Assembly: GCA_944372055.1 (NCBI GenBank)
Contig: CALVYF010000004.1
Span: 1,810-65,809 of the forward strand
Source: an uncultured Bacilli bacterium
GTDB taxonomy: Bacteria; Bacillota_I; Bacilli_A; RF39; UBA660
Direction: 5' to 3'
Length of the DNA: 64,000 nucleotides
The notes beneath the pieces were generated by a model. The model was not told where the DNA came from, did not search any database, and saw only the letters and a list, made by a program, of their open reading frames with translations. Made by a program: the position numbers and the translations under genes. This document shows positions 27,023 through 53,372 of the stretch, in pieces. Numbering within the stretch: the first letter of the stretch is position 1; each line of letters begins with the position of its first letter.

Positions 27023-28579
27023 ATGATTATTAGGAAACCTTATGCTTTTTTGATTAAAAACTTTAGAAAAATTCATATCTTTTTGTTGGTTTTATGTGGC
27101 TTTATCTATTATAAGTGTATGCAAACACGTTCTTTTGTTACTGAGTTTTTGCAACTTGAAACTTATGATGCTTATTATGAACCTATTACTAAATATGCTA
27201 GTGTTATATCTTTATTAGTATTGCTTATCATTGTTCTTTTATCTGTTGTTTTGGTTGTTTTACTGCGTTATAAGAAGAAGCCTTGGAAATTATATATCAT
27301 TCCTTTAGTTACATATACCTTTTTATTTTTCACTTTTGTTTTGACTATTTCTCTTTTTTCTGGTTATGATTCTTCTTCTGGAACGACGGGGATTCGTGCG
27401 ATTGGTGATTTGCTTTTCATTGGAACAATACCTCAGTATCCAGTTATTATTATCTTATTGATGCGTATTTTTGGTGTTGATTTAAATAAATTTGATTTTA
27501 AATCTGATCAAGAATATTTAGAATTAAACAGTGAAGATAGAGAAGAAATTGAAATTAGTGTAAATATTGATAAAGATAGTTTTAAAAGAGTATTTAAACG
27601 TTTAAAGAGAAATGCTGGTTATTTTTATCAAGAACATCACTTTTTTGTGAATATTCTTGCTTCTATTTTAGTTGTTGTTTGTGTTGTTAGTATTTATAGA
27701 TTTGTCTTTATTGTTCATAAGTCTTATAAACAAGGTGATACTATTGAAACCAATGGTTATACAATTAGTATTAATCATAGTTATTTTACGGATAAAGATT
27801 ATCGTGGTGAAGTAATTTCTAAGGCTAGTGATTTTGTTGTTTTGGATATTACTATTAAAAATAATGTTGGTGAAAGAGAAGTCAATTTTAATCGTTTTCA
27901 TGTTATGAATGGAACTGGTAATTATACACAAACCTATGAAACTTATGCCAATGACTTTAAAGATTTAGGTGATACGGTTGATAAACTTATCCTTGGCAGT
28001 CAAGATTCTAAAAGACTTCTTTTAGTTTTTAAGGTGGATAAAGATTTAAATCCTGATAAGTTTGTTCTTTATTATCAGGAACTTGATAATAATAAACCAT
28101 ATTTAAGAAAAATAAAATTAGATATGAAAGATTATAGTAAAATTGAAAAACAAAAAACTAAAGTTTTGCGTGAGGAAGAGACTATGCAGCTTGGAGAAGA
28201 AGAACTATCTTTTTCAATTGAGGATGTTAGTTTAGTTAGTCAGACAACCTATCATACCCGGGTATGTTCTAGTCGTAATAATTGTTATTCTACTCTTAAT
28301 AATTTGGTTGCAAGAGAGGGAAAATTATTATTACAAATATTCTTTTTATCTCCTGTTTTGACGGGGAAAGATTTCGTTGACTTTTCTATGGAATATGGTA
28401 AAATTGTTTATATAAATGATAAAGGTAAGCAACGTGAGATTTCGATTGTTGATGCTCTTGATAAAGACTATAATGGTAATTATATGTATTTGGAAGTGCC
28501 ACGGAGTTTACAAGAGGCTAATGAGATTCGGTTGGTATATACGGTGAGAAATAAGAAATATGTATATAGGTTGAAATAG
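27023..28579 (+). CDS. polytopic membrane protein with a C-terminal extracytoplasmic beta-rich domain
   Basis: About 5 TM helices in the first 230 aa. This is followed by a domain with a DUF4352-like pattern (FVVLDITIKNN..REVNF..FHVMNG...RLLLVFKV). The family call is tentative. Confidence 0.5.
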   Translation: MIIRKPYAFLIKNFRKIHIFLLVLCGFIYYKCMQTRSFVTEFLQLETYDAYYEPITKYASVISLLVLLIIVLLSVVLVVLLRYKKKPWKLYIIPLVTYTFLFFTFVLTISLFSGYDSSSGTTGIRAIGDLLFIGTIPQYPVIIILLMRIFGVDLNKFDFKSDQEYLELNSEDREEIEISVNIDKDSFKRVFKRLKRNAGYFYQEHHFFVNILASILVVVCVVSIYRFVFIVHKSYKQGDTIETNGYTISINHSYFTDKDYRGEVISKASDFVVLDITIKNNVGEREVNFNRFHVMNGTGNYTQTYETYANDFKDLGDTVDKLILGSQDSKRLLLVFKVDKDLNPDKFVLYYQELDNNKPYLRKIKLDMKDYSKIEKQKTKVLREEETMQLGEEELSFSIEDVSLVSQTTYHTRVCSSRNNCYSTLNNLVAREGKLLLQIFFLSPVLTGKDFVDFSMEYGKIVYINDKGKQREISIVDALDKDYNGNYMYLEVPRSLQEANEIRLVYTVRNKKYVYRLK

Positions 28580-28589
28580 GAGAAATATT

Positions 28590-52162: not shown

Positions 52163-53341
52163 ATGGGTACAAATTTTAATGTAGGTAGTTTTAATGCTAT
52201 TAATACTAATGAACCAAGGGATAAGAAACCTAGTAGTTCTCATAATGTGAATGATGATTTGAAAAAAAGATTACTTATTTTTGGTGGAGTTATTGTTATT
52301 GGTGTTGTGTTAATTGCTGTAATATTATTACTTTTTTCGAATAAGACTTATAGTTATGATGATATTGAAAAAATTATGACTAATGCAGCAGAGGCATATT
52401 TTGAAGATCATCCCAAGCGTTTACCAGTTTCAGAGTCTCGTCCAGTTGCTATTGATGTAGATGTTTTGGTTGAGTCTGAATATATGAAAGAAATGATTGA
52501 ATATACAGGAGAAGAAAAATCTTGTTCTGGTAGAGTTAACGTATATATGAATGATGGGGAGTATTTATATATTCCAAGATTAGATTGTGGTGAAGATTAT
52601 GTTACTCAGCCTTTAAAAGAAGTAGTTATTAAAGATGTTGTTGTGGATGGTTATGGATTGTATGAAGTAGGAAATTCGTATGTATATCGTGGTGAGACTG
52701 TTCATAATTATTTAGAACTTGATAATGCCGTTTGGCGAATCGTTAAGATTACTGATGATGGTAACTTTTTATTGATTTTGGATAGTGATATGTCTGAGTC
52801 TGTTCCATGGGATGATCGTTATAATTCTCAAGTTGGATATAATATTGGTATTAATACTTTTTCTGCTAGTCGTATTAAAGATTCTATTTTAGAATATTAT
52901 GATACAACTGATGAGGATAAAATTATCTTAAGTGAAGATGACAAGAGTAAAATTGTAGCTTTTGATTTATGTACTGGAAAAAGAAGTGTTTCTGATACTG
53001 CTACAGATAATTCTATTGAATGTAGTGAGGTTTTGGAAAATCAAAAAATTGGATTGCTTACTGCTTCTGATTTTATGATGGGGAGTGTTGATCCTAATTG
53101 TAAAACAATTTCTGATTATTCTTGCCAGAATTATAATTATTTAGCAGCATCTTATAAATGGTGGCTAGTTACTGCTGTTAAAGACAATACAGATGAAGCT
53201 TATGGGGTTAGTTCTAGTGGTATTGCAGAAGCTACTACAACATCTAGTTACATGTATCCTAGAGTAGTTATCATGTTAGATGGTAATGTATTATTTAAGA
53301 GTGGTAAGGGTACAGAAGCAAAGCCTTATAAGATAAAATAG
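52163..53341 (+). CDS. membrane-anchored surface protein, shorter paralog of 28590..30407
   Basis: TM anchor followed by AAEAYFE..RLP..IDVDVL..C..VNVY..YLYIPRLDCG head-like domain. The C-terminal module ends in GKGTEAKPYKI. Confidence 0.6.
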   Translation: MGTNFNVGSFNAINTNEPRDKKPSSSHNVNDDLKKRLLIFGGVIVIGVVLIAVILLLFSNKTYSYDDIEKIMTNAAEAYFEDHPKRLPVSESRPVAIDVDVLVESEYMKEMIEYTGEEKSCSGRVNVYMNDGEYLYIPRLDCGEDYVTQPLKEVVIKDVVVDGYGLYEVGNSYVYRGETVHNYLELDNAVWRIVKITDDGNFLLILDSDMSESVPWDDRYNSQVGYNIGINTFSASRIKDSILEYYDTTDEDKIILSEDDKSKIVAFDLCTGKRSVSDTATDNSIECSEVLENQKIGLLTASDFMMGSVDPNCKTISDYSCQNYNYLAASYKWWLVTAVKDNTDEAYGVSSSGIAEATTTSSYMYPRVVIMLDGNVLFKSGKGTEAKPYKIK

Positions 53342-53372
53342 GAATCTATTATGATGATAGATTCTTTTTTTT
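53342..53372 (+). terminator. rho-independent terminator (right boundary of Locus B)
   Basis: 8-bp stem GAATCTAT/ATAGATTC with a 7-nt loop, followed by T8. Confidence 0.7.

Follow-up and report, generated by a model that had tools for sequence, protein, structure and literature searches.

Can a bacterial chromosome keep a complete conjugation-type apparatus, joined to a pilus-assembly machine, for a role other than the spread of a mobile element? The question is raised by a 26-kb block of genes from an uncultured bacterium of the order RF39 of the Bacilli, which lies on contig CALVYF010000004.1 in a 64-kb stretch that was analysed as a whole and is called the window below. The block combines a Tad-like pilus module with a type IV secretion system (T4SS), a sortase and a set of surface proteins. 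On balance, we favour the reading that it is a chromosomally fixed and vertically inherited descendant of the mating apparatus of a Gram-positive conjugative plasmid, without a relaxase at the locus and with the two modules already linked, and its role is probably something other than spreading a mobile element.

Conservation and vertical inheritance

The block consists of 22 co-oriented open reading frames (ORFs; 27023-53341 in the ORF listing), numbered g01 to g22 in order, between greA (26455-26925) and a rhodanese gene (53388); coordinates, here and in Table 1, are those of the window. In a collection with one genome per species, more than 521 stretches carry a relative of the VirB4 ATPase, and the best 80 of these relatives are 78-97% identical to it and come without exception from uncultured Bacilli or 'Tenericutes' gut metagenome-assembled genomes. 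The order g06-g22 is kept in essentially all of the best ~80 species-level genomes, and a scan seeded with the ATPase shows the order g01-g18 in about 40 metagenome loci, often directly after greA. The rhodanese, VTT and rmuC genes follow the block in many genomes, with other flanks in more distant ones.

The identity of VirB4 between genomes correlates with that of RmuC, VTT and rhodanese (r = 0.71-0.84). Among the motor and core proteins, median identity is 85% for VirB4, 77% for both the TrsD-like protein and g08, 74% for the CpaF-type ATPase and 70% for VirD4, next to 85% for RmuC and 87% for GreA as housekeeping neighbours; the exposed proteins g01, g02, g04, g11, g15, g19, g20 and g22 have medians of 33-46%. 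These figures point to strong purifying selection on the motor and fast evolution of the exposed parts. Because order and site are conserved and VirB4 co-diverges with housekeeping neighbours, we regard the block as chromosomal and vertically inherited. An earlier note on this DNA had proposed a chromosomally fixed, relaxase-less composite, and the order, site, co-divergence and lack of a near-identical plasmid copy agree with that proposal; synteny at greA, which the note had suggested comparing, extends across the relatives, often at the same greA / rhodanese-VTT-rmuC site.

Several related loci depart from the common arrangement. L039 (1882-4883) and L028 (2962-6007) carry two extra genes between the Tad-like half and the T4SS half, one for a protein with a FAD/NAD-binding-type N-terminus and one for a large membrane protein; therefore, the modules can be separated by unrelated genes without loss. 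In another chromosomal lineage (L167-L169, 9209-14539), a VirB6-like gene comes immediately after CpaB, g08-, g09- and g12-like genes, and neither a pilin nor an ATPase gene separates them. This compact variant adjoins rplQ-ecfA-ecfA-ecfT-truA-rplM-rpsI. Each of the three contigs breaks off within or after the VirB6-like gene, a sign of a possible repeat or hypervariable region. The contexts L170, L173 and L177, also distant, are on stretches too short to add to the comparison. The distant loci L171 and L176 (1749-8607) keep DUF5411, RcpC, T2SSE, g08 and g09, and L176 continues with a large pXO2_28-like surface protein that has a weak Pfam match to PXO2_28_C.

Plasmid relatives and the origin of the composite

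For VirB4 and for g08 alike, the closest plasmid relatives lie on one set of conjugative plasmids, those of the Bacillus cereus group. In the order of transcription, the tra region of pIS56-68 (NC_020382.1) encodes a MobP3 relaxase, a CD1115-family VirD4 and a 70-aa hairpin protein (weak T4SS_pilin), and then TrbL, PrgI, a 227-aa TrsD-like protein, VirB4, NlpC/P60 with further genes, and an 851-aa surface protein. A DUF5411 protein, a SAF/CpaB protein, an AAA_31 ParA-like ATPase and a T2SSE ATPase come next, followed by homologues of g08 and g09, both of them membrane proteins, and by small proteins and a DUF4320 protein. Family profiles (hidden Markov models) built for RF39 give eight significant matches in this region, and Pfam links three more (DUF5411, AAA_31, T4SS_pilin). 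In all, at least 12 components of the block, drawn from both modules, are represented in this region. The profile matches fall on the Tad-like side (CpaB g06 against the SAF protein, 5.8e-35; the ATPase, 3.4e-38; g08, 1.8e-12; g09 against a 297-aa protein, 2.7e-11) and on the T4SS side (g16 against PrgI, 1.8e-5; g17 against the 227-aa TrsD-like protein, 5.7e-22; VirB4, 8e-90; VirD4, 4e-85).

Both modules are homologous to tra of the pIS56-68/pAW63/pXO2/pBT9727 type, and sub-blocks are collinear, but identity to pIS56-68 reaches no more than 21-33%, the two modules come in the opposite order and VirD4 stands at a different place. The RF39 block adds the sortase, the DUF6273 adhesins, a VirB2-fusion protein, the degenerate P-loop of the TadZ-like protein and the FFDDFFD tail of VirD4, whereas it has none of the MobP3 relaxase, recombinases, and partition and replication genes of these plasmids; unlike their tra, it is chromosomal and vertically inherited. 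The Tad-like module of pIS56-68 (L174, 11635-17870) is mostly annotated as 'hypothetical', and its pilus-like nature appears to have gone unrecognised. The related pAW63 and pXO2 have been described with 'VirB11', VirB4 and VirD4 (PMC1196294, PMC9673590); in the pAW63 paper, 'VirB11' is the name given to the counterpart of the ATPase of this module.

A similar pairing occurs on other plasmids, where VirB4-type genes stand directly beside a tad locus with CpaB, AAA ATPase, CpaF and T2SS-F proteins. On the plasmid of Mycoplasmatota bacterium zrk4 (CP074574.1; L175), VirB4 is followed by CpaB, an AAA ATPase, a 'CpaF family' protein, a hypothetical protein, a 'T2SS F family' protein and then two canonical Flp pilins, with the G/XXXXEY motif where the RF39 pilin has MKAATG/ELNLTV. 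The tad locus of a Cutibacterium acnes plasmid lies beside VirB4, FtsK-like and TcpC genes (PMC5696575). Both systems are extrachromosomal, in contrast to the RF39 block. Because the two modules pair on plasmids and in other lineages, they were linked before their fixation in RF39, and the 'fusion' was inherited. Accordingly, the earlier note's premise of Tad pili and Gram-positive T4SSs as normally separate machines is not supported by comparison with the pIS56-68, Mycoplasmatota and C. acnes plasmids. The note was also aware of no described system with this composition, for which the C. acnes plasmid and pAW63/pXO2 are published precedents. Profile and structure searches, in turn, support both the Tad-like and the VirB4/VirD4 assignments on which that note was built.

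Mobility functions

Pfam scans, which covered nearly all window ORFs of at least 100 aa, revealed no relaxase, integrase or recombinase, or partition gene in the window. No tRNA was found there, and the search for flanking direct (att-like) repeats yielded chance AT-rich matches only. These absences had been noted earlier, together with that of a prepilin peptidase, and all hold within the window. The plasmid MobP3 relaxase has no tblastn match in the window or in 173 related loci, no intergenic region inside the block exceeds 72 nt, and the insertions in a few related loci begin like metabolic or membrane proteins, unlike mobility genes. A megablast search with the T4SS half found no near-identical copy among 72,556 plasmids, the kind of copy that the earlier note had pointed to as the mark of an ordinary conjugative element.

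Layout and boundaries

The genes of the block are separated by gaps of 5-72 nt, and stop/start overlaps occur in five pairs (31204/31229, 34412/34452, 37666, 44276/44301 and 44824/44827). Intrinsic terminators bound it on both sides (Table 1). The downstream hairpin has a folding energy of -12.2 kcal/mol (z = -2.4); a simple terminator scan missed it because its stem is poor in G-C pairs. The co-orientation, tight packing, overlaps and terminators described earlier were all recovered, with a gene count of 22 in place of 21. The GC content of the window is about 29%, with positive GC skew throughout, and that of the block is 0.316 compared to 0.29 in the flanks. The core genes dnaE, lspA, rluD, ruvX, mltG, U32 peptidases, greA, rmuC, trpS, tig and lon were identified in the window with Pfam. 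The host belongs to Candidatus Faecimonas: its g08 protein is 99% identical to a protein of Candidatus Faecimonas intestinavium, and the relatives listed are at least 91% identical and all named 'hypothetical'. Candidatus Faecimonas corresponds to CAG-877 of GTDB (family CAG-611, order RF39) and has a genome of about 1.4 Mb (PMC8035907).

Table 1. Genes and boundaries of the block in the 64-kb window
Feature	Position	Strand	Basis or remark
Intrinsic terminator after greA, upstream block boundary	26924..26953	+	9-bp stem at 26924-26945, then T-run
g01, 518-aa polytopic membrane protein, extracellular beta-sandwich (DUF4352-like) domain	27023..28579	+	orthologue matches
g02, N-terminally anchored surface protein, Ig-like and DUF6273-type domains	28590..30407	+	Bact_surface_Ig-like 5.1e-17
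g03, sortase, class-B-like, divergent	30423..31229	+	Pfam Sortase 1.4e-5; TIGR03064 1.3e-14
g04, secreted Cys-rich 925-aa exoprotein	31204..33981	+	Sec-type N-terminus; start overlaps sortase stop by 26 nt
g05, DUF5411 protein, N-terminal hydrophobic helix	33988..34452	+	opens Tad-like module; DUF5411 3.7e-49 (Pfam)
g06, CpaB/RcpC-like (SAF-domain) pilus assembly protein	34412..35290	+	RcpC 5.6e-6; TIGR03177 1.6e-10
g07, CpaF/TadA/FlaI-type secretion ATPase, disordered C-terminal tail	35320..36747	+	T2SSE 9.6e-28 (Pfam)
g08, TadB/GspF-like platform protein	36764..37666	+	distant homologue, tblastn and structure-model matches
g09, TadC-like platform paralogue	37666..38451	+	weak paralogue of g08
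g10, short pilin-like protein, ~50-57 aa	38524..38709	+	probable start ATG at 38536
g11, 148-aa pseudopilin-like protein, N-terminal hydrophobic helix	38725..39171	+	position and N-terminus
g12, TadZ/CpaE-like two-domain cytoplasmic protein	39177..40208	+	AF2 model, Foldseek
g13, VirB2-like T4SS pilin, two-transmembrane hairpin	40258..40620	+	T4SS_pilin 5.1e-4, under cut-off
g14, secreted Cys-rich domain fused to C-terminal T4SS-pilin-like hairpin	40650..41912	+	by-eye alignment with g13
g15, extended VirB6/TrbL-like channel protein	41919..43955	+	TrbL_4 1.4e-5
g16, PrgI/VirB3-like small membrane protein	43984..44301	+	positions 2-96 of mycoplasma VirB3-VirB4 fusion model
g17, TrsD-like, stand-alone VirB4 N-terminal domain	44276..44827	+	VirB4_plasma positions 101-276, 1.5e-13
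g18, VirB4 ATPase	44824..46617	+	NCBIfam VirB4_plasma 9.4e-107; CD1110 3.2e-52
g19, cell-wall hydrolase, SpoIID-like and C39-like peptidase	46642..48969	+	SpoIID 3.4e-11; Peptidase_C39_2 8.9e-6
g20, 260-aa membrane-anchored protein in VirB8 position	48979..49761	+	no family match
g21, VirD4 coupling protein	49796..52150	+	T4SS-DNA_transf 2.9e-56 (Pfam)
g22, membrane-anchored DUF6273 surface protein, g02 paralogue	52163..53341	+	median identity 42%
Intrinsic terminator, downstream block boundary	53342..53380	+	12-bp AT-rich stem (53342-53372) and T8

The Tad-like module

A DUF5411 gene directly upstream of CpaB, the arrangement of g05 and g06, recurs in pIS56-68 (6.7e-7) and in the loci L171 and L176. 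The scores of g06 for RcpC and TIGR03177 are both under the curated cut-offs; together with the match to the plasmid SAF protein, they confirm the CpaB assignment of the earlier note with moderate confidence. In comparisons with PDB sequences, g07 is closest to the archaeal FlaI (1.5e-20) and the CpaF of Caulobacter (8.3e-20), ahead of VirB11 (1e-14), although NCBIfam scores it about equally for VirB11 and TadA, both under the cut-off, so that these two families are not separable. We considered a reading of g07 as merely the VirB11 of the T4SS and rejected it as the sole reading, given the better scores against CpaF and FlaI and because CpaB, two platform-like proteins, a pilin and DUF5411 accompany g07.

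The platform-like nature of g08 and g09 is assigned with moderate confidence, which is also how the TadB/TadC-like claim made for them fared. Neither protein of the window has a Pfam match, T2SSF included, and a T2SSF match (2.3e-5) was obtained for 1 of 23 distant homologues of g08, a narrow family with 242 representatives among 1.84e9 proteins. The best plasmid tblastn match of g08 is an annotated T2SS-F protein (9e-6). In its AF2 model (pLDDT 84.6), the cytoplasmic helical domain superposes on the GspF homologue EpsF (2vmb; prob 0.89, TM 0.62) at an E value of 2.1, which is not significant; Foldseek returned no statistically significant match for the model, with good local superposition on EpsF only. 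Alignment of the g09 and g08 families with hhalign gives a probability of 64% (E 6.7e-5). Profile searches with the g08, g09 and g12 families against PDB sequences produced nothing useful.

The alignment of 35 orthologues of g10 defines the motif MK(A/E)A(T/S)G-ELN(L/M)TV, in which A, G, E, L and T are invariant, followed by a hydrophobic helix. The Flp processing motif G/XXXXEY was not found in these 35 sequences, and they contain no 'EY'; hence g10 appears from its sequence to be pilin-like and not a canonical Flp, and the earlier label of a Flp-like pilin could not be confirmed in that form. The TGEL part of the motif is also present in the pilin of the distant lineage L171 (11820-11978; VKDYTGELVLV...). 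The next gene, g11, is duplicated in tandem in many related loci; its assignment as a pseudopilin finds no Pfam match in 30 orthologues, and its similarity to the DUF4320 protein of pIS56-68 is not significant.

In the model of g12 (pLDDT 78.5), an alpha/beta domain precedes a domain of MinD/ParA fold, and the C-terminus is basic and amphipathic. Foldseek matches the C-terminal domain to HypB, MeaB, ParA (3ea0, 3cwq) and MinD (4v03), all at prob 1.0. The P-loop is degenerate, with the Walker A lysine absent, and neither a sequence-family match in 24 orthologues nor a PDB profile match was obtained. Similarity to the AAA_31 ATPase of pIS56-68 is weak (0.008), and g12 is 40% identical to the gene that adjoins the VirB6-like gene in L167. 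As modelled, the architecture is TadZ-like with a degenerate P-loop, which gives the earlier label of a TadZ-like protein moderate support at the level of the fold.

Elsewhere in the window, the N-terminus of an 875-aa protein (18578-21205) is that of a canonical type IV prepilin, MRLNKKG/FTLVEIL (N_methyl 7.7e-8), and the protein also contains a Listeria-Bacteroides repeat. This prepilin suggests that a PilD/ComC-type peptidase is encoded elsewhere in the genome.

The T4SS module

The T4SS_pilin family is matched by 11 of 53 orthologues of g13 and g14 (best 4.8e-7). By eye, the last 80 aa of g14 align with g13 through ..D(L/F)(G/A)KA(V/I)I(S/A)SD.. and ..(P/T)TLVS.., at 24-31% identity (A6). 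For g15, TrbL_4 is matched by 18 of 24 orthologues (best 5e-10). These orthologue scans and the plasmid PrgI moderately confirm the two VirB2-like proteins, the VirB6-like protein and PrgI/VirB3 of the earlier list.

The proteins g16, g17 and g18 (105, 183 and 597 aa) jointly tile the fused mycoplasma VirB3-VirB4 model, and g17 also matches the TraC-like family PF26593. The NCBIfam scores of g18 are under the equivalog cut-offs (358 bits versus 590 for the mycoplasma family), and its identity to plasmid VirB4 is 28% (8e-74). A pseudogene, which the three ORFs might suggest, was considered and rejected, because the split into PrgI, TrsD-like protein and VirB4 is kept in more than 100 loci and matches the arrangement, and the TrsD concept, described in PMC12102498.

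The hydrolase g19 has a membrane anchor and a low-complexity N-terminus, and SpoIID was found in 9 of 9 orthologues scanned; its two domains bear out the cell wall hydrolase named earlier. SpoIID/C39 hydrolase domains differ from the SLT and CHAP types usual in MPF-FATA systems. Next to it, g20 yielded no family match in 18 orthologues and shows no detectable similarity to anything tested, so that the protein 'in VirB8 position' could not be confirmed as stated. In the distant relatives L062 (16013-16714), L039 (12339-13016) and L076 (15059-15757), g20 is replaced by a lipoprotein of about 225-235 aa, and distant RF39 genomes carry extra small membrane proteins between the hydrolase and VirD4.

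The coupling protein g21 scores 305.6 bits for the NCBIfam CD1115 family, above the cut-off of 250. VirD4 and VirB4 are, along with the T2SSE-family ATPase, DUF5411 and the SpoIID hydrolase, the strongly confirmed assignments of the block. The C-terminus of g21 (window 51900-52150) ends in a poly-acidic FFDDFFD(N/D/E) sequence that is invariant in about 70 orthologues and is preceded by a hypervariable linker rich in Pro, Gly and Met; this tail is not present in the VirD4 of the B. thuringiensis plasmid. Coupling-protein tails of this kind dock adaptors or relaxosome proteins, as F TraD does with TraM. Judging from its sequence, the tail probably serves as a docking peptide for a partner, and its invariance argues for a conserved cytoplasmic partner and for export.

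Upstream of the block, a 353-aa protein (15735-16796) carries a VirB2-like T4SS_pilin hairpin (PF18895, 1.6e-5) at its N-terminus, fused to a wall hydrolase of the Amidase_3 family, and an NlpC/P60 hydrolase follows at 16851-17699. This pair (15735-17699) may be a second, unlinked T4SS accessory about 10 kb upstream of the block.

Sortase, surface proteins and other genes of the window

The position of g01 is conserved and its median identity is 43%; four of its orthologues match DUF4352 (best 2.8e-7), and the copy in the window has no Pfam match. DUF6273 was detected in 17 orthologues of g02 and g22 (best 3.1e-9), g02 has repeated GxGTxxxPYxI ends in its sequence, and g22 sits between g13 and g14 in distant relatives. 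Instead of the 'pilin-head paralogs' postulated previously, these two are membrane-anchored surface proteins of the DUF6273/Ig-like type.

The class-B-like sortase g03 is confirmed with moderate confidence: both the Pfam and the TIGR03064 scores are under the curated cut-offs, and the catalytic (L/I)x(L)xTC motif is kept in the orthologues. No block protein has a canonical sorting signal (LPXTG or NPXTG with a C-terminal anchor). The exoprotein g04 has no Pfam family match; its orthologues contain 27-38 Cys, diverge to a median identity of 33%, have no membrane anchor and keep a [GC][VC]NN motif 10-20 residues from the C-terminus, which could be a non-canonical sortase signal.

A hybrid sensor kinase (8220-10562; HisKA, HATPase_c, receiver domain and Hpt), preceded by three ORFs without a family match (5764-8196), has no evident link to the block.

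Comparison with known systems

Searches of the literature on RF39 with T4SS, Tad or competence brought up no paper on this system in RF39. In composition, the block comes nearest to the tra regions of pIS56-68 and of pAW63/pXO2-type plasmids; in lifestyle, its nearest match is the patescibacterial T4SS. Relaxase-less chromosomal T4SSs of monoderms have already been described in Patescibacteria (PMC12102498), among them that of the Saccharibacteria species Southlakia epibionticum, and the patescibacterial system is essential for epibiotic growth (PMC12102498, PMC12857230). The two systems have in common a monoderm host with a reduced genome, a chromosomal, relaxase-less, MPF-FATA-like and lineage-wide locus, and PrgI, TrsD, VirB6, VirB4, a hydrolase and VirB2-like (PF18895) pilins. 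However, VirD4 is adjacent and highly conserved in RF39, which belongs to the Bacillota, whereas it is mostly distant and non-essential in Patescibacteria, and only in RF39 is a Tad-like module physically linked. According to a recent review, no other monoderm systems share the potential of the patescibacterial ones to elaborate VirB2 pili (PMC12857230).

The mycoplasma integrative and conjugative elements (ICEs) and chromosomal transfer system supply, with the Mbov_0397 VirB4 family, the best NCBIfam match of the RF39 VirB4, at 358 bits against the cut-off of 590. A canonical relaxase is involved neither there nor at the RF39 locus, and the mycoplasma host is a relative with a reduced genome, but its elements are mobile, being ICEs that carry a DDE recombinase, unlike the RF39 block. 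We know of no Tad-like module in mycoplasma ICEs. In the IncI plasmid R64, with its thin pilus, and in PAPI-1, VirB4 and VirD4 are accompanied by a type IV-filament machine that serves in mating-pair formation (PMC12857230); these differ from RF39 in having type IVb rather than Tad-like pili, a diderm envelope and relaxases on mobile elements.

Proposed function and alternative explanations

As a descendant of a plasmid mating apparatus, the block could work as follows. The CpaF-type ATPase, the two GspF-like platform proteins, CpaB and the TadZ-like protein would assemble a short-pilin fibre. This fibre, along with the fast-evolving surface proteins (g02, g22, the Cys-rich g04, and g14), would contact a partner cell, and the SpoIID/C39 hydrolase would open the wall. 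VirB6, PrgI, the TrsD-like protein, VirB4 and the VirB2-like pilins would form the channel, and VirD4 would recruit a cytoplasmic substrate or adaptor through its acidic FFDDFFD tail and feed it outward. The substrate could be a protein (an effector) or chromosomal DNA moved without a linked relaxase, by analogy with mycoplasma chromosomal transfer, in which DNA is transferred in this manner (PMC12857230).

Several points weigh against this proposal. The loci of the relatives were inspected within 10 kb either side of the query gene, and a relaxase could lie elsewhere in the genome, beyond the 64-kb window. Pfam detected no prepilin peptidase (A24; TadV/CpaA) in the window, the pilin g10 is non-canonical, and the TadZ, pseudopilin and VirB8 assignments are weak. 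In addition, the two modules might work independently of each other.

One possibility, unlikely in our estimate although well short of negligible, is that the block is the Bacillota counterpart of the essential patescibacterial T4SS, that is, an order-wide, vertically inherited device for contact-dependent attachment to other gut bacteria or host cells and exchange of material with them. If so, RF39 would be obligately partner-dependent, which would explain its resistance to cultivation, and the Tad-like fibre and FFDDFFD tail would be lineage-specific adaptations.

A DNA-uptake or exchange machine, in which DNA or partner cells would be caught by the Tad-like fibre and DNA taken in through the VirB4/VirB6 channel, appears improbable to us. 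There are precedents in the ComB system of H. pylori, archaeal Ced/Ted with Ups pili and the Tad-dependent transformation of Micrococcus luteus (PMC12102498, PMC5696575), and the host genome, at 1.4 Mb, is reduced (PMC8035907). The locus is chromosomal and lacks a relaxase, its conserved downstream neighbour rmuC is a DNA recombination gene, and T4SS loci of ABY1 Patescibacteria adjoin comF, recG and radA. However, rmuC lies beyond the terminator and may reflect plain synteny, no ComEC or ComEA-type genes are found nearby, and the tightly linked, conserved VirD4 with its partner-docking tail is typical of export. To our knowledge, ComB functions without a VirD4. Moreover, the essentiality of the saccharibacterial T4SS is independent of competence (PMC12857230).

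We also assign a low probability to the view that the block holds two neighbouring machines that work independently, one a T4SS and the other an adhesive pilus of the Tad-like kind with sortase-dependent surface proteins. Gram-negative plasmids such as R64 do have a T4SS and a type IV pilus that cooperate as separate machines (PMC12857230), L039 and L028 tolerate insertions between g12 and g13, and L171 and L176 show the Tad-like module without visible T4SS genes, on short contigs. Against this, the modules remain linked throughout RF39, on at least two plasmid families and in the compact L167-type variant, and the narrow g08 family accompanies conjugation-type genes in every context long enough to judge.

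An ordinary ICE or its remnant, with relaxase, integrase and att sites outside the window, is largely refuted and thus very improbable. All structural genes do have homologues on conjugative plasmids, and VirD4 belongs to the CD1115 conjugal-transfer family. Nevertheless, dozens of species have the block at the same site with its gene order unchanged, it diverges in step with its neighbours, its flanks are core genes (dnaE, greA, tig, lon, trpS), no integrase, relaxase, tRNA or att repeat lies within 27 kb upstream or 10 kb downstream, and the searches for MobP3 in the 173 loci and for a near-identical plasmid copy were negative. The idea of a decaying relic without current function, prompted by the apparent split of VirB4 into three ORFs, retains practically no probability and is refuted by conservation, given that the split is normal in pGO1-type, patescibacterial and pIS56-68 systems and that the ORFs are intact in more than 100 loci, with motor proteins 70-85% identical across species.

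Implications

The composition of the block is not unprecedented; the case that emerges is one of independent domestication in the Bacillota, with the Tad-like module and the coupling protein intact and the motor and channel genes of a Gram-positive conjugation apparatus kept as a complete set. For plasmid biology, a Tad-like pilus module appears to account for the 'VirB11' region of plasmids of the pAW63/pXO2 type, which would make them members of a class of Gram-positive conjugation systems that is under-annotated and may build a pilus. Experiments could start from the VirD4 tail, the pilin motif and the rapidly evolving adhesins.

RF39 is an uncultured gut lineage, encountered here in many human and animal gut metagenomes, with genomes of about 1.4-1.5 Mb, of which the 26-kb apparatus takes up roughly 2%. 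Because of this share, and because its motor is conserved at the level of housekeeping proteins in every related genome inspected, the block is likely to be central to the life of RF39. Taken together, these observations would mean that a monoderm conjugation machine has been domesticated twice, here and, independently, in Patescibacteria.

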